Shown: positions 3,563 through 60,578 of the stretch, piece after piece | Layout: each line of letters opens with the position of its first letter | Position numbering within the stretch: position 1 is the stretch's first letter | NCBI GenBank assembly: GCA_023134715.1 | Contig: JAGLUP010000005.1 | Span: forward strand, 8,782-72,781 | Length of the DNA: 64,000 nt | Origin: Candidatus Parcubacteria bacterium | Lineage (GTDB): Bacteria > Patescibacteriota > Minisyncoccia > Minisyncoccales > JAGLUP01 | Reading direction: 5' to 3' | Notes under the pieces: model-generated | The model's input: only the letters and a program-made list of their open reading frames with translations | Told to the model about the DNA's origin: nothing | Database searches by the model: none | Translations under genes and position numbers: made by a program

Positions 3563-4048
3563 TCATTCCTTGTCCTTATTTTCTTCTTTCTTAATTTTCT
3601 TGATTTCTTGCTTTTCCTCTTTTATCTCCTCTTTTTCTACAACTTCTTTTTTCTCATCTTTCGGCTTTTCTTTCGCCTGTTCTTTAACCTCTGGCTGGAC
3701 AAACTCTTTTCTTTTTAGCCGTGTTTTTTTCTTTTTAACTCCTCTTAAATAATAAAGTTTTGCTCTTCTCACTTTTCCGCGCTCTAAAATCTCAATCTTT
3801 TCTATCGTAGATAAATGAAGCGGGAAAATTTTCTCTACGCCAATTCCTCCGGTTATTCTTCTTACAGTAATTGTGGCTGAAATCCCTTTCCCATGTTTTC
3901 TGGCAATAACTCGTCCTTCAAACGCTTGAACCCTTTCCTTGTCTCCCTCTTTAATTTTTTGATAAACCTTAACCAAATCACCAGGCCTAATATCAGGCAG
4001 GTCTTTTTTTAAGTAAGGTTTAATAAATGCTTCAATCTTTGTTGTCAT
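3563..4048 (-). CDS. rplS: 50S ribosomal protein L19 with about 50-aa Lys/Glu-rich C-terminal extension
   Basis: The N-terminal 110 aa carry the L19 signature ([17 protein letters not shown]...[28 protein letters not shown]). The tail is [40 protein letters not shown]. Confidence 0.9.
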
Positions 4049-21149: not shown

Positions 21150-22703
21150 ATGAGCCCGAGTGAAACAATAATCAAACAACTAATTAAAAACAGAATTAAA
21201 ACTCCTGACGGCTTGTCTTTGATTAAAAGAAAAATAGCAAAAAAATATAATACTTCTCTTGCTTCAAATATAGCTCTACTTAAAGCATATCATAAATTAT
21301 TAAACAAAAAAAGAATTAAAAAAAGCAAAATTTTGGAAAAACTTCTTCAAAAACATCCTATTAGAAGCTTGTCTGGAGTGGTGGTGGTTTCTGTTTTAAC
21401 AAAGCCATATCCCTGCCCTGGCAAGTGTATTTTTTGCCCCTCTGAAAAAGGAATCCCTAAGAGCTATTTATCAGGCGAGCCGGCAGTAGAAAGAGCAAAA
21501 ATGTTAAACTTTGACCCTTATGTTCAAGTTCAAAAACGTTTGGAAATGCTAAAAGACCAAGGGCATCCCACTGATAAAGTTGAACTTCGAATAATAGGAG
21601 CAACTTTTACTTATTACCCTAAACAATACCAATCCTGGTTTATTAAAAAATGTTTTGATGGTGCTAATCAAAAAAAATCTAAAAATCTTGAACAAGCTCA
21701 AAAGAAAAATGAAAAAGCAAAAAATAGAATAGTGGGGATGAGCATAGAAACAAGGCCTGACCTTATCACGAAAAAAGAAATTTTAAATCTAAGGAAATTA
21801 GGAATAACAATGGTAGAGCTCGGAGCGCAGACTGTATTTGATGACATCTTAAAGAAAAACAAAAGAGGTCATTCAGTTAAAGAGACCATAAATGCTACAA
21901 AACTTTTAAAAGACGCGGGATTTAAGATTATGTATCAGATGATGCCTAATTTACTTGGCTCTAATCTAAAAAAGGATTTGGAATGCTTTAAAATAATTTT
22001 TAACAATCCTGTTTTCAAACCTGACTGGCTTAAAATTTATCCTTGTATGGTCTGCCGAAGCTCAAAACTTTATCAAATCTGGAAGCAGGGAAAATTCAAA
22101 CCTTATTCCGACAAACAATTAATTGAACTTTTAATTAAAATTAAAAAAATCCTGCCTTATTGGGTAAGAGTGGGACGGCTCTTTCGCGATATTCCTTCGC
22201 AAAAAATTGAAGCTGGTTCTAAAATCTCCAATCTCAGACAAGTAGTCCAAAAACAAATGGCAGAAAAAAATATTTTTTGCAAATGTATAAGATGCAGAGA
22301 GGTAAGAGAAAAATATGACTCAAAAGAAAAAATTTATCTTTTTAGAGAAGATTACAATGCTTCAAGCGGAAAAGAAATATTTTTAAGCTTTGAGAATAAA
22401 AACAGGACAAAACTTTTTGGTTTTCTCCGCCTCCGCCTCCCAATTGAAACAAAGGAGACCCGACCTCCTTCATCTATTATTAGAGAACTTCATATTTTTG
22501 GACGAGCTGTCCCTGTTTCAGAAAAAAAATCAAGCCCCCAGCATAGGGGATTAGGCAAAAAATTAATAAAACAAGCGGAAAAAATTACCAAAAAAGAATT
22601 CAATGTCTCTAAAATCGCTATTATCTCCGGAATCGGAGTCCGCGGATACTACCGCAAACTCGGCTATCGCCTAAAAAACACTTATATGATAAAAAAACTA
22701 TAA
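21150..22703 (+). CDS. elp3: Elp3-type radical SAM / GNAT tRNA uridine(34) carboxymethyl-modification enzyme
   Basis: 517 aa. It has the Cys cluster PYPCPGKCIFCP, a radical-SAM core, IRELHIFG, and the C-terminal GNAT motif HRGLGKKLI. Confidence 0.8.
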   Translation: MSPSETIIKQLIKNRIKTPDGLSLIKRKIAKKYNTSLASNIALLKAYHKLLNKKRIKKSKILEKLLQKHPIRSLSGVVVVSVLTKPYPCPGKCIFCPSEKGIPKSYLSGEPAVERAKMLNFDPYVQVQKRLEMLKDQGHPTDKVELRIIGATFTYYPKQYQSWFIKKCFDGANQKKSKNLEQAQKKNEKAKNRIVGMSIETRPDLITKKEILNLRKLGITMVELGAQTVFDDILKKNKRGHSVKETINATKLLKDAGFKIMYQMMPNLLGSNLKKDLECFKIIFNNPVFKPDWLKIYPCMVCRSSKLYQIWKQGKFKPYSDKQLIELLIKIKKILPYWVRVGRLFRDIPSQKIEAGSKISNLRQVVQKQMAEKNIFCKCIRCREVREKYDSKEKIYLFREDYNASSGKEIFLSFENKNRTKLFGFLRLRLPIETKETRPPSSIIRELHIFGRAVPVSEKKSSPQHRGLGKKLIKQAEKITKKEFNVSKIAIISGIGVRGYYRKLGYRLKNTYMIKKL

Positions 22704-44212: not shown

Positions 44213-46685
44213 TTCTCAAAAATCAAATAAAGAAATCGGCTATATTAAACCGCGGGAAATAGTTGAAGAAATGAAAGAATCATATATTGATTACGCAATG
44301 TCAGTTATTATCGCGCGCGCATTGCCTGATGTTCGCGACGGCTTAAAGCCGGTCCACCGCAGAATTTTATACGCAATGCTCGAAGACGGATTAAGAGCAA
44401 ACGCAAAATTTAGAAAATCAGCAACTGTTGTCGGGTCTGTATTAGGACGTTATCATCCTCACGGCGATATTGCTGTTTATGACGCAATGGCAAGAATGGC
44501 CCAGGATTTTTCGTTAAGATACCCTCTAATCAACGGGCAGGGAAACTGGGGCAGTATTGACGGAGATAATCAGGCCGCTATGCGTTATACCGAAGCAAAA
44601 CTCTCAAAAATTGGCGAAGAAACGCTAAAAGATATTGAAAAAAATACTGTTAATTTCAGAGACAATTATGACGGCACAAGAAAAGAACCGTGCGTTCTGC
44701 CATCGCCGCTTCCTCAACTTCTTTTAAACGGCTCTCTGGGAATCGCTGTTGGAATGGCGACAAATATTCCTCCTCATAATCTCTCTGAAGTGGTAGAAGC
44801 GGTAATACACCTAATTGACAATCCAAAAACAACAACTGAAGATCTTTTCCAATTCATTAAAGGACCTGATTTTCCCTTAGGAGGAATAATTTTTGACAAA
44901 AAAGAAATAATATCCGCTTATTCTCAAGGCAAGGGACCTATTTTAACCAGAGGTAAAGCAGAAATTATAGAAAATAAAACTCATCAACAGCAAATTATTA
45001 TTACTGAGATTCCCTATCAAACCCAAAAATCAAACTTAGTCACTCAAATAGCAAAATTAGTAGAAACGAAAAAACTGGAAGGAATTAAAGATGTCCGAGA
45101 CGAGTCAGATAGAGATGGAATGAGAATTGTTATTGAGCTTAAAACCGGAGCTTATCCTCAAAAAATCTTAAATCGTTTATATAAATTCAGCGACCTTCAA
45201 AAAACTTTTCACCTTAATATGCTTGCCATAGTAGACGGAATCCAGCCAAAAATTCTTTCCCTTGCTGAAATTCTTAATTATTATATTTTACACAGAAAAG
45301 AAGTAATAGTAAGAAGAACTAAATATGAATTAGCAAAAGCAGAAGAAAGAGCGCATATTTTGCAAGGATTAGTTATGGCGCTTGGAAAAATTGACGCGAT
45401 TATCAAAACAATCAAGCAGTCAAAAAACAGAGAAGACGCTCAGAAGAATTTAATCGAAAAATTTAAATTTACCACTATCCAGGCAAACGCTATTCTGGAA
45501 ATCAAGCTTCACTCCTTGGCTAAATTAGAACGTGAAAAACTGGAACAAGAACTTGAAGAGCTTTTGACTAAAATTAAAAAACTCAAGGCGATTCTGAAAG
45601 ACCCTAAAAAAATAAGAAAACTAATGAAAGATGAACTGCAGGAGGTTAAAGAAAGATACGGAGACCAGAGAAGAACTAAAGTGGTTGCTCAAAAAATTGG
45701 AGAAATCGCTGAAGAGGATTTAATTCCTCAAGAAGAAACAATTATTGTTTTAACGCAGGGCGGTTATATTAAAAGAATAAATCCATCTGTTTATAAAATT
45801 CAGAAAAGAGGAGGAAAGGGAATTTTAGGAATGAAAACGCTTCAGGAAGATATTATTGAACATTTTATTTCAGCCAATACTCATGACTCGCTTCTTTTCT
45901 TTACTGACTCAGGAAAAGTTTTCCGAACCTTTGCCTATGAAATTCCTGAAGGCAGTAGAGTGGCAAGAGGAAGAGGGCTTTTAAACTTTTTAGAAATTTC
46001 TCAAGAAGAAAAAGTTCTTTCCTTGATTACTTTAAAAAAAGATGATAAAGAGTTATCAACAAGATATTTAGTAATGCTTACAGAAAATGGTATAATAAAA
46101 AAGACATCTTTGAAAGAATTTGAGAATGTGCGAAGAAACGGGCTTATTGCCATAAAACTAAATAAAGGAGACGCTCTGAAATCTGTAAGGAAAAGCAGTG
46201 GAGAAGATGAGATAATTTTAGCCACAAAAAAAGGACAATCTATCAGATTTAAAGAAAAAGAAATTCGCGCTATGGGACGTCCAACTGCAGGCGTAAAAGC
46301 AATCCGATTAAAAAAAGAAGATAAAGTTGTGGGAATGGACACCATAGAAAGCCCCCGCCAAGAGCGGGGCAAGCAAAACTTAGATAAGAATTATTTATTG
46401 GTGGTTAGTGAAAACGGATATGGAAAGAAAACAGATATTAAAGAATATCGAAAACAAGGCAGAGGAGGTTCGGGAATAAAAACAGCTAACATAACTAAGA
46501 AAACCGGCGAAATTGTCTTTTCTAAAATCATTACGGAAGAAGAAGATTTAATCGTAATCTCCCAACAAGGACAAGTAATAAAAACAAATATTGCGTCTAT
46601 CCCGATTTTAAGCCGCGCCACTCAAGGCGTTAGAATAATGAAGCTTAATGAAAACGATAAAGTCGCATCCGCAACTTGTATTTAA
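44202..46685 (+). CDS. gyrA: DNA gyrase subunit A
   Basis: It has [12 protein letters not shown], the active-site context AAMRYTE, and C-terminal beta-pinwheel repeats. Confidence 0.95.
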
Positions 46686-48423: not shown

Positions 48424-48465
48424 GGAGACCCGACCTCCTTTGCCAGTGAAGGAGGTCGGGTCTCC
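48424..48465 (+). repeat. GACCCGACC-family hairpin B (15-bp stem, loop tttgccagtgaa)
   Basis: The stem is ggagacccgacctcc ... ggaggtcgggtctcc. The 18-mer aggagacccgacctcctt also occurs inside elp3 at 22447-22464. Confidence 0.8.
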
Positions 48466-48611: not shown

Positions 48612-48646
48612 AAAGACCCGACCTTTGGATTTAAGGTCGGGTCTTT
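48612..48646. terminator. GACCCGACC-family hairpin D downstream of hsp20
   Basis: aaagacccgacc-tttggatttaa-ggtcgggtcttt forms a 12-bp stem. Confidence 0.7.
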
Positions 48647-48649
48647 AAT

Positions 48650-49099
48650 TTACTGCTTAACTGATATTTTTCTCTCTTTTTCTCGATGAATTATCGGCAA
48701 TTTAATAGTTAGGATGCCTTTTTTCATAGAAGCGCTGATTTCTTCAGGATTTACTTCTTCAGGTAAAACTATTTTTCTGGAAAATGCTCCCCACCAGCAT
48801 TCTTGATAAAGATATTTCGGCCCGCCCGCGTCGCTCCCGCCGGGTTTTTTTCTCTCGCCCCTTATGGTTATTATATCGTTCTCAATTGAAATATCTAAAT
48901 CCTCTGGCTTAACGCCGGCAACAGGGGACTGAATAACAATTTCTGAATCTGTTTGGAAAACATCAACAACCAGCTGCCCTTCTTTTTTAAACCATTTTTC
49001 CTCGCTTTCCTTCTCTTTCTCTTCTTCCAAATCTAAATCCAATTCTTTTATAGAAATCTCTTTTCCCTTATTTTTTTTTGATTTTTTTAAAAACCCCAT
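48650..49099 (-). CDS. Hsp20/alpha-crystallin family small heat-shock protein
   Basis: It has the alpha-crystallin core DVFQTDSEIVIQSPVAGVKPEDLDISI...GAFSRKIVLPEEV...GILTIKLP. Confidence 0.85.
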   Translation of the reverse strand: MGFLKKSKKNKGKEISIKELDLDLEEEKEKESEEKWFKKEGQLVVDVFQTDSEIVIQSPVAGVKPEDLDISIENDIITIRGERKKPGGSDAGGPKYLYQECWWGAFSRKIVLPEEVNPEEISASMKKGILTIKLPIIHREKERKISVKQ

Positions 49100-49843: not shown

Positions 49844-50973
49844 ACCTTTAAGTTAGCATTTACTTTAATATTTTTCCAATTTTTTGTTTTTTGGTTTTTA
49901 TGATAATACGCTGTTATGGCTATCATCGCCGCATTGTCAGTGCAGAAAATTTTTGGGGGAACCAAAAATTTTAGTTTGTAGTTTATAGTTTGTAGTTTAT
50001 GGTTAAATTGCCTTCTTAACTCTTTGTTTGCTGTAACGCCACCGCCAAGAATTATAGATTTTGCCTTATATTGTTTAGCGGCTTTAATAGTTTTAAAAAT
50101 TAAAACATCAATTATCGCCTGTTGAATCTCCCGGCACATCTCTTGAATATATTTTTTTGACCTTGCTGTTTTTTCAGGCCGTTTTTTAAAATCATATAAG
50201 ACCGCTGTTTTCAACCCAGAAAAACTAAAATCATAATCCTTGCTATGAAGCATCGGTCTTGGCAACTTAGTTTGTAGTTTATAGTTTATAGTTTGTAGTT
50301 TCGCGGCTTCAGCGGAAATGGCAGGACCACCAGGATAATCTAACCCTAAAATTCTCGCTGTCTTGTCAAAACACTCCCCGGCCGCATCATCCCTTGTTTC
50401 TCCTAAAATTTTATACTTTCCAATTCCCTTCATTAAAATCAACTGCGTATGCCCGCCGCTTACCACTAAACATATCGCAGGGAATAAGTATTTTGTATTT
50501 TGCCCGCCCGCATCGCTACGCGAAGCGTTGCGGGCGGGGATTTTGATATCTGGTGGCAACCAATTAGCAAGTATGTGCGCTTCTATATGGTTAACTGGAA
50601 TAATCGGCAAATCCCATAAACAAGAAAGCTCTTTAGCAAAATTCACTCCCACCCATAAACACGGCTCTAATCCTGGACCTATCGTCACCGCAACCGCGTC
50701 AATATTTGGTTTTCTGAACTTTGATAATTTGGCTTTTCCTAATGCTTTTTTCAAAACTGGCTCTAAATTTTTCTGGTGTTCTCTTATCGCCATAGTCGGG
50801 TAAATTCCGCCATATTTCTTATGGATTTCAGCTTGAGAAGAAACAATATTGCTTAAAATTTTTACTTTTTGCTTATTAATCTCTAATACGGCAACGCAGG
50901 TATCATCGCAGGATGTTTCAATAGCTAAAATTTTCATTGCTCTTATTTTATCATTTGACTTGATTTTTTTCAA
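49840..50973 (-). CDS. tsaD: tRNA N6-adenosine threonylcarbamoyltransferase TsaD (with three in-frame repeat insertions)
   Basis: It has [33 protein letters not shown] and [10 protein letters not shown] motifs. Confidence 0.9.
   Translation of the reverse strand: [377 protein letters not shown]
49972..49999. repeat. Heptamer tandem repeat (TAGTTTR)x4 inside tsaD
   Basis: The repeat reads tagtttg tagttta tagtttg tagttta. On the coding strand it reads KLQTINYKL. Confidence 0.9.
50268..50302. repeat. Heptamer tandem repeat (TAGTTTN)x5 inside tsaD
   Basis: The repeat reads tagtttg tagttta tagttta tagtttg tagtttc. On the coding strand it reads [11 protein letters not shown]. Confidence 0.9.
50502..50539. 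repeat. GC-rich palindromic mini-element in-frame in tsaD
   Basis: The sequence is gcccgcccgcatcgct-acgcga-agcgttgcgggcgggg, with 15-nt arms complementary at 14/15. Confidence 0.85.
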
Positions 50974-55071: not shown

Positions 55072-57171
55072 ATGACTGAAAAAACTTATAAACTAAAACT
55101 TAACGGAAAAGAGCTTAAAGTTGAGCTCAAAAACTTGGCCGAGCAGGCAAATGGCGAGGTTTTGGTGCAATACGGAGATACTTTGGTTCTGGCAACTTGC
55201 GTAATGGCGCAAGAAAGACAAGGTATTGATTTTTTTCCTTTAACCGTGGGATACGAAGAGCGATATTACGCCGCTGGAAAAATCAGGGGCTCCCGCTATA
55301 TGAGAAGAGAGGGGCGACCGTCAGACGCCGCAATTTTAACTTCGCGCCTGATTGACAGAGCTATTAGGCCAAGATTTCCAAAAGGATTTAAAAAAGAAGT
55401 TCAAATAATCATAACCTGCCTTTCCTGGGACGCTGAAAACGACCCGGATATATTAGGATTGATTGCGGCTTCTTTAGCTCTCTCAATTTCTGATATTCCT
55501 TGGTCAGGGCCAATCAGCGCCGTAAGAATAGGAAAAATAAACGGGAAATTTATTCCTAACCCAAGTTATGAAGAAAGAGAAATAGACAAACTGGATTTAA
55601 CAATGTCCGCGATAGGGCCTTCGCTTCTTATTAATATGATTGAAGCTGACGCTCAAGAGGTTTCAGAAGAAGTAATTATGGAAGCAAATAAATTTGCCAA
55701 ACCCTATTTAAAAAAAATAATTGATTTTCAGGAGCAAATAATAAAAGAGCAGGGGAAAGAAAAAATTGCTGTTGATATTCAATCGCCAGACGCTGAACTG
55801 GAAAAAGAAATAAAAGATTTTCTGAAAAATCAGGAATTGGAAAAAGCTCTTTTTGCTAAAGACAAACAAGAACGGCAGAAAGGGATAGATAATATTAAAG
55901 AAAAATTATTAAATTTTATCACGGAAAAATATCCGAATTCGCCAGGTGGTGAAAAAAAAATAAAACAGGCGAATGATCTACTAGAACAAGAAATCAATGG
56001 ATTAATACATAAAAATATTATTGAAAAAGAAAAAAGGCCGGATGGAAGAGAATTAGATGAGGTGAGAAAAATTTCCTGCGAAGTCGGACTTCTTCCAAGA
56101 ACGCATGGGTCGGGCCTCTTTACTCGAGGGATTACTAGGGGACTATCAATCCTAACTCTTGGAGCGCCTGGAGATGTGCAGCTGCTTGATGGAATGGAAA
56201 TTGTCGGCAAAAAAAGATTTATGCTTCATTATAACTTTCCGCCTTATTCAGTAGGTGAAGCAAGAATGCTAAGGGGGCCGGGAAGAAGAGAAATAGGACA
56301 TGGAAATCTGGCAGAAATCGCCCTGCTTCCGTTAATCCCAGATGTGGATAATTTCCCATATACTATCAGGATTGTTTCTGAAATGCTTTCTTCTAACGGC
56401 TCAACCTCAATGGCATCGGTTTCTTCCGCTTCTCTGGCTTTAATGGACGCCGGCGTGCCAATTAAAACGCCCGCGACTGGAATTGCCATTGGGCTAATGA
56501 GTAATGAAAAAGGAGATTATAAGATTTTGACAGATATTCAGGGGCCAGAAGACCATTATGGAGATATGGATTTAAAAGTAGCTGGAACTGAAAATGGAAT
56601 AACAGCTATTCAAATGGATGTTAAAGTTGACGGTATAAATGAAAAAATCTTAGAACAAGCTTTGTCCCAAGCAAAAAAAGCTCGACTTCAAATTTTGGAT
56701 GAAATGAAAAAAGCAATAGACGGTCCCAGACCAAAACTTTCTCCATACGCCCCAAGAATTTTAACCATTCAAATTGATCCTAAAAAAATTAGAGAAGTTA
56801 TTGGTCCCGGAGGAAAAATAATCAATGAAATAATTGAAAAATGCGAGGTTTCTATTGATATTGAAGACACAGGAGAGATTTTTATCACCGCGGAAAAAGA
56901 AGAATCAGCTAAAAAAGCGGTTGAATGGATAAAAAATATTATCAGAGAAGCTAAAGTGGGAGAAATTTTTCAAGGCAAGGTTAAGAGAATTATGGATTTC
57001 GGGGCTTTTGTTGAAATCCTGCCCAACCAAGAAGGACTGGTCCATATTTCCAAACTTGCCGACCATAGAGTTGAAAAAGTAGAAGACATAGTAAAAGTTG
57101 GAGATATATTGCCGGTCAAAGTTGTAGAAATTGACCAACAAGGAAGAATTAACCTTTCCGCAAAAATATGA
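55072..57171 (+). CDS. pnp: Polyribonucleotide nucleotidyltransferase (PNPase)
   Basis: It has two RNase PH domains (RPDGR, GSGLFTRG), a KH domain (VIGPGGKIINEI), and a C-terminal S1 domain. Confidence 0.95.
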   Translation: MTEKTYKLKLNGKELKVELKNLAEQANGEVLVQYGDTLVLATCVMAQERQGIDFFPLTVGYEERYYAAGKIRGSRYMRREGRPSDAAILTSRLIDRAIRPRFPKGFKKEVQIIITCLSWDAENDPDILGLIAASLALSISDIPWSGPISAVRIGKINGKFIPNPSYEEREIDKLDLTMSAIGPSLLINMIEADAQEVSEEVIMEANKFAKPYLKKIIDFQEQIIKEQGKEKIAVDIQSPDAELEKEIKDFLKNQELEKALFAKDKQERQKGIDNIKEKLLNFITEKYPNSPGGEKKIKQANDLLEQEINGLIHKNIIEKEKRPDGRELDEVRKISCEVGLLPRTHGSGLFTRGITRGLSILTLGAPGDVQLLDGMEIVGKKRFMLHYNFPPYSVGEARMLRGPGRREIGHGNLAEIALLPLIPDVDNFPYTIRIVSEMLSSNGSTSMASVSSASLALMDAGVPIKTPATGIAIGLMSNEKGDYKILTDIQGPEDHYGDMDLKVAGTENGITAIQMDVKVDGINEKILEQALSQAKKARLQILDEMKKAIDGPRPKLSPYAPRILTIQIDPKKIREVIGPGGKIINEIIEKCEVSIDIEDTGEIFITAEKEESAKKAVEWIKNIIREAKVGEIFQGKVKRIMDFGAFVEILPNQEGLVHISKLADHRVEKVEDIVKVGDILPVKVVEIDQQGRINLSAKI

Positions 57172-59084
57172 ACAAAGAAAAATTAGAATTCTTAAAAAGA
57201 GCGGAGATTAGAACAATGGAAAAAGACATTGCCCGATTTCGGGAAGAAGAAGCGCAAAAAGCTCGAGAAAAATTAACTACTAAAGAACCCGTTGAAATTC
57301 CTGCGAAGACTGAAGAAGACAAGCATGTAGCTATCCCGCGAAGTGAAACTATAGCGAGCGAAGAAGAAAAAATCAAAGAAGAGAAACAAATAGCTGAAGA
57401 AATTGAAAAAAAATGGCTTAAGGAAAAAGCAGAATTAGAACAAAAAAAAGCTGAAGCAGAAGAAAGAAAAAAAATATTGGAAAATCAGAAAGAACCAATA
57501 GAAACAAAAAAAAATGATTTATTAAAACAACTAGAACAACTCAAGCAAACCCTTGAGCCAATTTTAATAAAAGAAAAAGAAATTGAACAAAGGAGAAAAG
57601 AAATTGAAGAAAAAGAGCGACTCACTGTTTCTTTTGAACAAAAACGGAAAATTGAAAAACAAAGATGGCAGGTTGAAGATGAAATAAAGGAAACAGAAAA
57701 ACAAAGATGGCAGGTTGAAGATGAAATTGAAAAAATAAAGCAGGAAATAAAAAAATATATTTTAGAAGAACAAAAAATCTTAAAAGAAAAGGTTCTGATA
57801 AAAGAAAAAAAAGATACATTAAAAAAACAGCTTCAAGAAATTGAAGAAAAAGTAGAGCCTCTAAAATTAAAACTGAACGAAATTTTAGAAAAAGAAAAAG
57901 AGTTAAAACAAGAAATTGAGAATGTGGACAAACCCGCCGAAAGTCCTCCTGCCCGCAATGCAAGCGATGCAGGCGGGGCAAGCATTCAAGCGAGCAGTCC
58001 TGAGCAAATTCCAGAACCTCAGCCAGATGCTGATCCGCCTTTGGCGGAAACGCCTAAGCCTGCTACTCAGAGTCCAGAGGACGATGAAGTAGTCCCGCCT
58101 ACTGGCGGGGAGCCAGAACCTCAGATTAAAGAACCCCCAAAATACGAACAACCACCTGAAATAAAACAAATAAGAGCAACGCTAGAAGAAGTTCAAAAAA
58201 GAGAAGAAGAAGAAAGAGGACGATTCTTAAGAAAAATTGAAGAAACAGATATTGAAGACGAGCCAGCCGAAAGTCCAAGTATCCAGGAAAGCGAGCCCGC
58301 AAAAGTGGTTTTCAGACATCTCCCACAAAAACCCCGCCTTCTTGAAAAAATCTGGATTAGATTTATAATCTTAATTGTTATTTTCTTAATTTTGGCAAGT
58401 ATTTTCACTTTTTGGTACTGGTATTTTGAAATAAAATCCCCTCAAGATTCTAAATCGTCAACTCCAGAAGAAATAATGGAATCAAGAGTAGTCATCCCTC
58501 CAGAATCTTTAATTTCAGTTGAGACAATAAAAATTTTTGAAATAAATTCCGACGAACAAACAGTTGACGTTTTTGAACGAGCAATAAAAGAAAACCTGTC
58601 AAAAGGATTCATTAGAATTATAATTAAAAATCAAACAGAAAATAAAATTTTAGGATTAAAAGAATTTTTTGAAAATTTCCAGATTAAAGCGCCTGAAAAC
58701 TTTGAGCAAAAATTAAATAATGATTTTACCTTGTTTATTTATTCTTCAGAAAATAATAACTTCGGCTTTACGGCTGAAATAACACCCGCCGAAAGTCCTG
58801 CGGACAATCAGGCGGACAGGGAGAATTTAAAAGAAATAATGCTTTCTTGGGAGGAAACCATTAAAAAAGACCTTGAACCCCTTTTGTTTGTTTTAGCTGA
58901 AAACAAGGATTTAACTCCTTCTCATGCCTTTAAACAAGCATCCCATAAAGAAGCAGATTTTCGTTATATTAGTTTTTTAGAAGAAGATTTAGGAATTTGT
59001 TATAGTATTTTTGACAATTATTTTATTCTTACTTTTTCGGGCGATACAATAATAAAAACTATAGATAATATAAAAAATAAATAA
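57168..59084 (+). CDS. Large coiled-coil / Pro-rich / single-TM hypothetical protein
   Basis: 638 aa, ATGA-coupled to pnp. It has an EK-rich coiled coil with a 39-nt tandem duplication (EKQRWQVEDEI x2), a GC-rich Pro/Ala region, a TM helix (IWIRFIILIVIFLILASIFTFWYWYF), and a C-terminal domain of about 220 aa. Confidence 0.7.
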   Translation: MNKEKLEFLKRAEIRTMEKDIARFREEEAQKAREKLTTKEPVEIPAKTEEDKHVAIPRSETIASEEEKIKEEKQIAEEIEKKWLKEKAELEQKKAEAEERKKILENQKEPIETKKNDLLKQLEQLKQTLEPILIKEKEIEQRRKEIEEKERLTVSFEQKRKIEKQRWQVEDEIKETEKQRWQVEDEIEKIKQEIKKYILEEQKILKEKVLIKEKKDTLKKQLQEIEEKVEPLKLKLNEILEKEKELKQEIENVDKPAESPPARNASDAGGASIQASSPEQIPEPQPDADPPLAETPKPATQSPEDDEVVPPTGGEPEPQIKEPPKYEQPPEIKQIRATLEEVQKREEEERGRFLRKIEETDIEDEPAESPSIQESEPAKVVFRHLPQKPRLLEKIWIRFIILIVIFLILASIFTFWYWYFEIKSPQDSKSSTPEEIMESRVVIPPESLISVETIKIFEINSDEQTVDVFERAIKENLSKGFIRIIIKNQTENKILGLKEFFENFQIKAPENFEQKLNNDFTLFIYSSENNNFGFTAEITPAESPADNQADRENLKEIMLSWEETIKKDLEPLLFVLAENKDLTPSHAFKQASHKEADFRYISFLEEDLGICYSIFDNYFILTFSGDTIIKTIDNIKNK

Positions 59085-59091
59085 ATAAATA

Positions 59092-59128
59092 AAGACCCGA
59101 CCTTAAAGAATCCCAAAGGTCGGGTCTT
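59092..59128. terminator. GACCCGACC-family hairpin E
   Basis: The sequence is aagacccgacc-ttaaagaatcccaaa-ggtcgggtctt. The 40-nt stretch 59093-59132 is identical to 59515-59554. Confidence 0.75.
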
Positions 59129-59513: not shown

Positions 59514-59550
59514 AAGACCCGACCTTAAAGAATCCCAAAGGTCGGGTCTT
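59514..59550. terminator. GACCCGACC-family hairpin F (bidirectional position)
   Basis: It is identical to hairpin E and lies between the convergent traR/dksA-like and M23 peptidase genes. Confidence 0.75.
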
Positions 59551-59558
59551 AAATAACC

Positions 59559-60578
59559 CTATTGAGCAAACGGATTGCGAGCCCCCCGAACCTCAAAATG
59601 AAGATGGCATCCCAAAGATCCAGAAGGAATAGTATAACCGCTATGCCCCATATAGCCAATAATTTCTCCTTGAGAAACTTCTTGCCCAGACGCAGTAATT
59701 ATCTTTGAGAGATGACCATAAAAAGTAACCACTTCATTCGGATGAATAATTCTTATATAACTGCCAGCTATTCTATGATAACCTGTTTTTTGAACTACAC
59801 CGCTCGCAGCCGCTAAAATTGGTTCGCCGCAGCTCACTCCTTCATGACTAAAATCAATTGCGTTATAAAGGTGCAGTCCTTGAGTAATTCGGCAGGGAGG
59901 AAGAATGGGACAAATAAAATAACTTGAAGCAATCGGCGTGGTATATGCCGCGCTATAAACAATTTTTGGTTTTACGCCATTAGGAATAACTAAAACATCG
60001 CCGATAAAAATCTCTGCTCCAGACAAATTGTTAGCAGTAATAACCTCGCTGACGTCTCCCTTATAGTCTTGGACAACCTGACTTAGGGTGTCGCCTGATT
60101 TCACTAAATGCATTATTCCGGAAACCGGCAAAATAAGCAATTTTTGCCCGGGCTTAATTACAGAATTTTTACTCAAATTATTTGCCCAAAGCAATGTCTC
60201 AAGAGTAATTTCAAACTTAGAAGTAATGGTAGAAAGAGTGTCTCCCTGCTCAATAATATATTCAACAATTTCTTCTCTCTCTAAAAAAGAATCATCCATG
60301 CCCAAACCGGCCAAAACCTTAGAAGAAACAAGTGTATAGGGAGCAGCCCCGAGCAAACTGTTGCTCTGGGCTAAACATAAATCAGAAAACCCTTGAGCCG
60401 CTGGAAAAGATGATTGCTGAACTCCAATCGCCCAATAAGAACTGCTTACTTCTTTGCCAACAAAAACAGGGCTTTCCTGCCCGCCTCGCCAAACGGCGGG
60501 TTTGTCAGAAACCCCGCAAATTAAAACAATTAATCCTATTAAAAAAACAAGTTTTTTAATTCTACTCATATACCCCAT
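59559..60578 (-). CDS. Secreted LysM x2 + M23 family metallopeptidase (peptidoglycan hydrolase)
   Basis: The two LysM domains are YIIEQGDTLSTITSKF...PGQKLLILP and HLVKSGDTLSQVV...GDVLVIP. The M23 motifs are HLYNAIDF and GHSGYT...HLHFEVR. Confidence 0.85.
   Translation of the reverse strand: MGYMSRIKKLVFLIGLIVLICGVSDKPAVWRGGQESPVFVGKEVSSSYWAIGVQQSSFPAAQGFSDLCLAQSNSLLGAAPYTLVSSKVLAGLGMDDSFLEREEIVEYIIEQGDTLSTITSKFEITLETLLWANNLSKNSVIKPGQKLLILPVSGIMHLVKSGDTLSQVVQDYKGDVSEVITANNLSGAEIFIGDVLVIPNGVKPKIVYSAAYTTPIASSYFICPILPPCRITQGLHLYNAIDFSHEGVSCGEPILAAASGVVQKTGYHRIAGSYIRIIHPNEVVTFYGHLSKIITASGQEVSQGEIIGYMGHSGYTIPSGSLGCHLHFEVRGARNPFAQ

Follow-up and report, generated by a model that had tools for sequence, protein, structure and literature searches.

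The linker gene

The window analysed here is a 64-kb stretch of DNA (64,000 nt) from a Candidatus Parcubacteria bacterium (contig JAGLUP010000005.1), and our subject is a Pro/Ala-rich linker encoded by one of its genes, which appears to be built from small inserted palindromic elements. The host gene lies downstream of rpsO and pnp. Its 638-residue product consists of an N-terminal Glu/Lys-rich coiled coil, the linker (57931–58125, 195 nt), one transmembrane helix and a conserved C-terminal domain. A search of Pfam and NCBIfam with the protein matched no family. Three public contigs encode the identical protein, and one of these belongs to a Patescibacteria-type metagenome-assembled genome (MAG), GCA_030673145.1. 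An N-terminal motif and the C-terminal domain are common to 30 homologs with identities of at most 47%. The full-length homologs are 322–446 residues long and lack both the long coiled coil and the entire Pro/Ala-rich segment. A preliminary description of this DNA had proposed that inserted GC-rich hairpin repeats, and not the evolution of ordinary coding sequence, gave rise to the linker, a claim that would fall if orthologs shared a linker of the same length without the hairpin symmetry; the linker is absent from all 18 aligned homologs. Three families of short element, named E, F3 and DH and defined below, were recognised in the window. The features are as follows.

57168–59084, + strand: host gene, open reading frame (ORF) of 638 codons
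57288–57320, + strand: possible fourth F3 copy, strongly decayed, PVEIPAKTEED; 22/33 matches, third-best of 128,000 window positions
57933–57947, + strand: F3 copy 1, left part, 15 nt, CCCGCCGAAAGTCCT, encoding PAESP; interrupted by a nested E
57948–57977, + strand: E copy, 30 nt, CCTGCCCGCAATGCAAGCGATGCAGGCGGG, encoding PARNASDAGG; covariance model R1, 40.6 bits, E-value 5.7e-6
57978–57995, + strand: F3 copy 1, right part, 18 nt, GCAAGCATTCAAGCGAGC; 12/18 against the right half of F3
58019–58048, + strand: DH double hairpin, 30 nt, TCAGCCAGATGCTGA then TCCGCCTTTGGCGGA, encoding (P)QPDADPPLAE; match to a dispersed family with one stem mismatch
58094–58109, + strand: single hairpin CCCGCC-TACT-GGCGGG, encoding PPTGG, assigned to no family; perfect 6-bp stem, −8.1 kcal/mol as DNA, z = −4.7
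58263–58292, + strand: F3 copy 2, decayed, lacking 3 nt and without E, PAESPSIQES; 20/30 aligned positions against the consensus
58785–58817, + strand: F3 copy 3, nearly intact, CCCGCCGAAAGTCCTGCGGACAATCAGGCGGAC, PAESPADNQAD; 32/33 against the consensus of seven contigs
50503–50538, − strand: full 36-nt E copy in tsaD, perfectly palindromic, CCCGCCCGCAACGCTTCGCGTAGCGATGCGGGCGGG, encoding PARNASRSDAGG; covariance model 64.2 bits, E-value 1.4e-10

Hairpins, composition and folding

At least four hairpin-capable units had been described within about 200 nt of the linker. All are present, with coordinates shifted by a few bases. CCCGCC at 57933–57938 pairs with GGCGGG at 57972–57977 and encloses an inner hairpin. 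A TCAGC..GCTGA stem at 58019–58033 is followed by the hairpin TCCGCC-TTT-GGCGGA at 58034–58048; the existence of the latter had been recognised correctly, its position having been placed about 9 nt too far to the right. The last unit, CCCGCC-TACT-GGCGGG, occupies 58094–58109. About 112 of the 195 nt of the linker belong to recognisable hairpin units.

The contrast in composition noted earlier between the linker and its AT-rich gene is borne out: GC content is 0.53–0.58 over 57900–58149 and 0.19–0.34 in the coiled-coil coding sequence on either side. Overall GC is 34% for the window and 70–78% for the elements themselves. There are 13 CCCGCC hexamers in the 64 kb, and four of the six GGCGGG hexamers have CCCGCC within 45 nt upstream, where simple arithmetic leads one to expect about 1%. 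A 198-nt stretch of the linker folds at −71.2 kcal/mol, compared with −58.6 ± 4.5 kcal/mol for permutations of its codon order (z = −2.84); 0.6% of the permutations fold as well. GC at the third codon position (GC3) is mildly but not significantly raised in the linker: it is present in 28 of 74 codons, where the usage of 53 window genes predicts 21.7 (z = 1.6). Only the Ser codons stand out, all six in the linker being AGY, compared with 27% AGY elsewhere in the window.

The 14-mer CCCGCCGAAAGTCC, which encodes PAESP, does occur three times in the gene as reported, exactly at 57933 and 58785 and with one mismatch at 58263. The chance expectation is 0.14, and three matches were seen in none of 100 shuffles. 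The word is not one of many Pro-Ala codon strings scattered through this DNA, since it has no further occurrence in the 64 kb.

Element E

Translation of all CCCGCC/GGCGGG hairpins in the window gave the first lead: PARNAS-DAGG, a peptide of the linker, has a counterpart, PARNASRSDAGG, encoded on the opposite strand by an unrelated gene, tsaD. The element concerned, E, is 36 nt long (CCYGCCCGCAAYGCTTCGCRTAGCGATGCRGGCGGG) and encodes PARNAS[HRQ]SDAGG. The in-frame tsaD copy is the reference for the window; the linker copy corresponds to a natural variant ..GCTTCGCAAAGC.. minus 6 nt of the apical loop. A degenerate pattern was derived from the two window copies, GCCCGCAAYGC-N(3-12)-GAYGCRGGCGGG, and scanned over one-genome-per-species contigs. 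It matched at least 120 genome loci, with about one expected by chance. The scan demanded exact identity at 23 positions, and conservation at these positions is therefore partly a product of retrieval. Nearly all the matches are 36 nt long and have unique flanks, the unconstrained 5′ CCY and central TTCGCRTAGC also being conserved. Among 80 hosts listed, around half are Patescibacteria of many classes and around a quarter are Verrucomicrobiota or Kiritimatiellia; a few of those listed are low-GC ‘Gammaproteobacteria’ and Bdellovibrionales MAGs. E is also present on five contigs in IMG/VR.

Two main variants were found, with T, T, A, A or C, C, G, G at positions 3, 12, 20 and 30. The first encodes PARNASHSDAGG and the second PARNASRSDAGG, and both occur in Patescibacteria and in Verrucomicrobiota. 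The pair 12–20 co-varies: 21 distinct variants have U-A at this pair and 10 have C-G. With the pairing register we chose, 93.9% of cells are paired and co-variation is observed at 3–30 and 12–20. The DNA fold of the common variant favours a different outer register, so the outer register is ambiguous and only the inner pair 12–20 is robust. A covariance model (R1) built from 37 variants identified exactly two significant copies in the window, those in tsaD and the linker. Rfam, searched at a permissive threshold with the linker and tsaD regions, returned sub-threshold noise and no matching family.

Other hairpins of the window were considered as E copies. Those in the Hsp20 gene, in the M23 peptidase gene and at 58094 were rejected, with covariance-model E-values above 2 (9.7 bits and an E-value of 6 for the hairpin at 58094). 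In the Hsp20 gene a CCCGCC..GGCGGG hairpin (48821–48844, − strand) encodes PGGSDAGGP and has AGCGAYGCGGGCGGG in common with the 3′ half of E. The hairpin of the M23/LysM peptidase gene (60476–60500, − strand) has the same ends, lies inside the ORF and encodes PAVWRGG.

Most copies of E are in coding sequence, 85 of 109 being located in ORFs of at least 100 residues. The frame PARNAS.SDAGG accounts for 51 of these 85; the other four open frames are used 10, 10, 10 and 4 times, and the sixth contains a stop codon. In-frame hosts include RpoB, SecA, GyrA (twice), PheT, ribonucleotide reductase, AlaRS, a class-I (Trp/Tyr) tRNA synthetase, a release factor and NusB. The flank composition of the copies revealed no conserved target sequence adjoining E. 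Targeting of the IS200/IS605 type was rejected, as no conserved target tetranucleotide sits beside E.

The tsaD copy allows filled and empty sites to be compared. TsaD residues 135–152 do not align with the solved TsaD structures, and among the 120 closest TsaD proteins (54–100% identity) only the window's own contains the 12 residues of E. The identical TsaD protein is encoded on two contigs. The window reads AAA ATC [36 nt] CAA AAT ACA, where an ortholog (L139) reads AAA ATA CAA AAT ACT; the insertion was therefore exact, in-frame and without target duplication. Another ortholog (L140, protein P0033) carries a different 63-nt hairpin element one base from the E site. The TsaD homologs of the candidate phyla radiation (CPR; P0031–P0150) range from 343 to 452 residues through many lineage-specific short insertions, in which peptide types such as NPVRG...TSNGV, SNFQF.ISK and PSTRAKLGAG recur, together with others. 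This suggests that several further repeat families may enter coding sequence.

At three loci of one Verrucomicrobia MAG (L015, L029 and L061) E is located within a repeat of about 170 nt, similar to a MITE (miniature inverted-repeat transposable element), with terminal inverted repeats TGAGTCAGTTTCAAAAGTCC. A 15-mer in this terminal inverted repeat, AAAGTCCTGCGGACA, is shared with the third PAESP site of the window, a borderline match.

The preliminary description also linked the linker to an insertion in gyrA through a shared 12-mer, GCGGGGCAAGCA, found at 57973–57984 and at 46364–46375. The expectation for this word is 0.10, and two matches appeared in one of 100 shuffles, which is weak. The gyrA C-terminal domain does contain a perfect hairpin, CCCCGC-CAAGA-GCGGGG (46353–46369), in a blade loop 11 residues longer than that of Mycobacterium tuberculosis GyrA. 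This loop is hypervariable across 120 CPR GyrA proteins, and the closest CPR homolog has one just as long. We therefore reject it as a related insertion, find no support for homology and treat the common 12-mer as probably due to chance.

Element F3

F3 is about 33 nt long and encodes PAESPADNQAG; its 5′ end is formed by the PAESP 14-mer. A pattern derived from site 3, which also returned GC-rich chance matches, located F3 in seven low-GC metagenome contigs as the near-identical sequence CCCGCCGAAAGTCCTGCGGACA[AT]TCAGGCGGG(C) with unrelated flanks. All seven copies lie in ORFs and all are read in the frame PAESPAD.QAG. Reading of the sequences placed them in an FtsK linker, an S16 tail, a PolA interdomain region and the N-terminus of L7/L12, as well as in a large surface protein (two copies) and in the NusA tail of two orthologs. 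The two NusA copies read ADNQAG and AGNEAG, which shows inheritance and decay. In the surface protein (L145, contig Ga0208375_1000011) a span of 60 residues takes in both F3 copies together with a degenerate E-like peptide, EPARNDAAASGGD, and this segment is apparently another linker built from the same elements.

In the host gene, the third F3 copy sits inside the conserved extracytoplasmic C-terminal domain. It forms an insertion of 10–11 residues where all 18 aligned homologs have a 10-residue gap, and its hairpin has z = −3.1. The first copy is split. A match as good as that of its right half occurs with a frequency of 9e-5 per window position, and removal of 57948–57977, the E copy, joins the two parts into a sequence with 27/33 identity to the F3 consensus. 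The second copy is more decayed. Its context DEPAESP-SIQESEP aligns with DKPAESP[E]ASIQASSP at site 1, and, being paralogous to site 1 and without E, site 2 represents an internal empty site for E. The possible fourth copy coincides with extra residues relative to the homologs; a repeat family, D6, also pairs this site with site 3.

DH and other hairpins

The DH family has the form TCAGCC-NNN-GGCTGA-TCCGCC-NNN-GGCGGA, with conserved stems and free loops. As DNA the window copy folds at −10.1 kcal/mol (z = −3.8). DH is present at about 20 other loci, coding and non-coding, and the strict pattern occurs on 12 viral contigs in IMG/VR. Some non-coding copies are flanked by T and A runs, and the family may overlap with terminators.

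A 12-mer encoding PEPQ, CCAGAACCTCAG, is found twice in the linker, at 58010–58021 and 58113–58124. The first copy overlaps the start of the double hairpin, and the second may therefore mark an uninterrupted site. The coiled-coil part of the gene contains a 42-nt tandem duplication (57640–57723, 86% identical) that encodes KQRWQVEDEI twice.

A separate, intergenic hairpin family, AAGACCCGACCTT...AAGGTCGGGTCTT with the variant GGAGACCCGACCTCC, follows several genes (48613–48645, 59092–59128 and 59514–59550; also 22454–22470 and 48424–48465). These hairpins look like shared terminators or elements resembling repetitive extragenic palindromes (REPs).

E beside tRNA fragments and GIY-YIG genes

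Non-coding copies of E repeatedly sit within short duplicated fragments of tRNA genes that adjoin an intact tRNA. E interrupts the D stem between GC and TC at L020 and L042 (twice) and, by reading of the flanks, at L084; it lies in the T arm at L013, L017 and L018. A gene for a GIY-YIG nuclease of about 80 residues adjoins E at four of the nine loci that hold such a gene (ORF spans: L013, 1270–1700; L017, 580–820; L020, 1380–1800; L064, 7200–7680). L013 and L017 are Verrucomicrobia MAGs. At L013, L017 and L020 the GIY-YIG ORF has the intact tRNA gene on one side and, on the other, a duplicated fragment of a tRNA, which E splits exactly at the junction. The arrangements X-E-Y′-payload-X′-Y and X-Y′-payload-X′-E-Y would fit recombination of a tRNA gene with a small DNA ‘X′-E-Y′-payload’. 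The small GIY-YIG nuclease is tentatively a candidate mobiliser of E. No GIY-YIG gene was found in the 64-kb window.

Two related arrangements were noted. L042 has two tandem 120-nt units (3640–3960) directly upstream of an intact tRNA-Thr gene; in each unit E interrupts, in the D stem, a fragment made up of the initial 21 nt of tRNA-Thr. At L018 (6020–6146, − strand) DH lies directly upstream of a 3′ tRNA-like fragment, at the expected anticodon loop of tRNA-Lys(UUU). The 5′ half is missing, and the sequence is thus a fragment and not an intron-bearing gene.

Origin of the linker

Comparison with other genomes supports the proposal of inserted repeats. In our reading, to which we give a probability of roughly three in four, the linker is pieced together from very small GC-rich palindromic elements that were inserted in an AT-rich gene and were kept because they do not disrupt the reading frame and code for flexible peptides that do no harm. 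CCCGCC...GGCGGG stands at or near the ends of all three families, E, F3 and DH. Each has a length divisible by three, and the dominant frame gives peptides rich in Pro, Ala, Ser, Asp and Gly. The same sequences are found with unrelated flanks in many genomes, and conserved proteins are interrupted by them where orthologs are uninterrupted. Within the linker E is nested inside F3, and older copies decay in place.

Such elements would be non-autonomous and selfish and would be moved in trans, much as Rickettsia palindromic elements or mitochondrial GC clusters are. Selection would remove insertions into structured regions or in unfavourable frames; the copies that survive would be those it tolerates, in a frame yielding small hydrophilic peptides. 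Copies would as a consequence build up in loops, in tails and in disordered spacers, of which this juxtamembrane linker is an example, and their accumulation may have lengthened the 638-residue protein. Judged from sequence, tiny insertions appear to create new protein loops and linkers.

Several observations weigh against this reading. About 40% of the 195 nt of the linker fits no assigned family, and GC3 is not significantly deviant. The homologs compared all have identities of at most 47%, and growth of the linker unit by unit is not seen among them. Neither the hairpin at 58094 nor the look-alikes in the Hsp20, M23 peptidase and gyrA genes reach significance with the E model. We found no transposase, no duplication of the target and no conserved target sequence, and mobility is consequently deduced from filled and empty sites alone. 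The retrieval of E by exact identity at 23 positions has been mentioned. All E hosts among the matches listed are MAGs, and E was unmatched in two isolate-derived collections, PLSDB (plasmids) and INPHARED (phages). Lastly, E is nearly identical across phyla, which is unusual for selfish repeats and could mean a selected function.

This last point leads to the best-surviving alternative, in which the hairpins are nucleic-acid signals selected by the host, such as REP-like sites for gyrase or nucleoid proteins, mRNA stabilisers or translation pause sites, and sit inside genes because small genomes have almost no intergenic space. The co-variation of the inner-stem pair 12–20, the conserved stems and variable loops of DH, and the bias in orientation and frame all fit such signals. 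The co-variation derives from two variant lineages only, in an alignment gathered by pattern. Moreover, copies are free to decay where they stand (as at sites 1 and 2, in the 6-nt loop deletion and in the NusA orthologs), are sporadic among orthologs (one of 120 TsaD proteins), obey no positional rule relative to gene starts or ends and belong to no Rfam family. We regard this explanation as unlikely.

Slightly less likely again is that the repeats arose inside the 638-residue gene only, by slippage or duplication of a short unit coding for PAESP or PEPQ. Sites 1 and 2 do align as paralogous segments (DKPAESP..SIQASSPE and DEPAESPSIQESEPA), the 12-mer CCAGAACCTCAG is present at both 58010 and 58113, and the coiled coil contains the 42-nt tandem duplication. 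The units should then be absent outside the gene, but the same 32–33-nt F3 is found in FtsK, NusA, S16, PolA and L7/L12 of other organisms, and E in tsaD of the same genome and at least 120 other loci. Site 3, too, lies in a separate conserved domain as an insertion relative to 18 homologs. Duplication survives as a secondary process only, one that may have produced part of the repetition locally (PAESP sites 1 and 2, the PEPQ 12-mer).

An ordinary disordered Pro/Ala/Gly-rich linker, made GC-rich by CCN, GCN and GGN codons and with CCGCC and GGCGG words pairing by chance, is very improbable. It is true that GC3 is near expectation, so that much of the GC excess follows amino-acid composition, and that such loops vary freely in related proteins. 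This explanation is, however, already largely refuted by DNA identity with unrelated genes and organisms that includes synonymous positions (40.6 bits for E, 32/33 for F3), by folding better than 99.4% of codon permutations, by the threefold 14-mer and by the uniform AGY Ser codons. Artefacts of metagenome assembly or library preparation, which the restriction of the listed E hosts to MAGs and the absence of E from the isolate-derived collections might suggest, are hardly credible given the replicate contigs (three for the 638-residue protein, two for TsaD), the graded decay, in-frame deletions and nesting, the diverged copies inherited by orthologs, the many projects that supplied matches and the preference for one reading frame, which an artefact would not produce.

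A wider proposal goes beyond the linker, and we consider it doubtful. It holds that hairpins of 30–36 nt with CCCGCC...GGCGGG ends form an undescribed superfamily of the smallest known bacterial mobile elements, exchanged between Patescibacteria and Verrucomicrobiota, moved in trans by cassettes of a small structure-specific GIY-YIG nuclease that home to the D and T arms of tRNA genes, and constituting a main source of the lineage-specific loops, tails and linkers in essential proteins of ultra-small bacteria.

Comparison with known repeats

Selfish palindromic DNA in protein-coding genes is already known as a phenomenon; what stands out here is the tiny size of the units, the presence of E across phyla and the range of essential proteins affected. 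Full-text searches of the searchable literature found no description of E, F3 or DH, though one may still exist.

In behaviour the closest system, likened by description, is that of the Rickettsia palindromic elements (RPEs), which measure about 105–146 bp and are confined to Rickettsia (Ogata et al. 2000, summarised in PMC3184786). Like E and F3, RPEs are palindromic repeats dispersed in a small AT-rich genome and inserted in-frame within coding sequence, housekeeping genes included, and the genes survive the insertion; no transposase is known for either. In-frame insertion of this type is observed for E (in tsaD, where an ortholog has the empty site, and in RpoB, SecA and GyrA) and for F3. 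Size and host range differ: the present units are GC-rich, 30–36 nt long and hosted by Patescibacteria, Verrucomicrobiota and other MAGs.

In form the closest are the GC clusters of yeast mitochondria, such as GC42. A putative AG target-site duplication and horizontal exchange have been reported for these, and mobilisation by a separately encoded endonuclease has been proposed, the mechanism being left unsettled (PMC4478555). They are short GC-rich palindromes in an AT-rich genome, with conserved stems, variable loops and merging or nesting. The elements of 70–78% GC in a window of 34% GC, with the conserved DH stems, share this form. The GC clusters are mitochondrial with an AG duplication, whereas the present contig is bacterial, no duplication is seen in tsaD, and the copies are mostly internal to ORFs in a preferred frame.

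REPs lie outside genes, with a GTAG or CGTC tag at one end of the palindrome (PMC3733652). REPs and REPINs, which are mobilised by RAYT transposases, resemble the present elements in being imperfect GC-rich palindromes of 20–40 nt in many copies, sometimes paired (PMC3733652; PMC3184786). Here, in contrast, 85 of 109 E copies and all seven F3 copies are in ORFs. Nor is there a GTAG or CGTC tag at the end of E, which begins CCY.. and ends ..GGCGGG between variable flanks; the sole GTAG lies inside the element, in the variant that has G at position 20. Unlike REPs, E, F3 and DH end in CCYGCC/GGCGGG and are not species-specific.

Terminal inverted repeats, as in MITEs, are present (CCCGCC/GGCGGG in E and F3, CCGCC/GGCGG in DH). 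Target-site duplication was not found in tsaD, and the flank composition of E shows no repeated bases. MITEs are about 50–500 bp long and derived from insertion sequences; the present units have 30–36 nt, and no parent insertion sequence was seen. CRISPR arrays do not account for E either, since nearly every E locus listed is single-copy and the Rfam CRISPR-DR families score 12–13 bits against gathering thresholds of 42–45. The linker hairpins differ from intrinsic terminators in lying inside a continuous ORF of 638 codons without a T run.

PARCELs are 25-residue coding units that form long tandem arrays in proteins of unknown function. They too are coding repeats with dyad symmetry, scattered over microbial clades that are only distantly related, an apparent result of horizontal transfer, and some are associated with mobile elements. 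The present elements, unlike PARCEL arrays, are solitary insertions of 10–12 residues in conserved proteins. Paquin, Laforest and Lang are said to have described, in 2000, double-hairpin elements of Allomyces mitochondria in which a pair of GC-rich hairpins is adjacent, with evidence of mobility in an AT-rich genome. These are mitochondrial and are not known to be related in sequence to the present elements, and we take the likeness as a lead only.

Implications

Proteins of the CPR (Patescibacteria) are known for unexplained lineage-specific insertions. Repeat families of 30–36 nt, definable by sequence, offer a concrete source for some of these, and can pile up into whole linkers. Their in-frame hosts include essential proteins such as RpoB, SecA, GyrA, TsaD, aminoacyl-tRNA synthetases and ribosomal proteins. 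The families give a handle for masking such segments in phylogenomics and structure prediction, and the insertions constitute a natural experiment in the birth of disordered protein segments. The occurrence of E in several phyla implies horizontal spread or a shared mobilising machinery, which can now be searched for. Selfish DNA in coding genes would then extend from Rickettsia to much smaller units.

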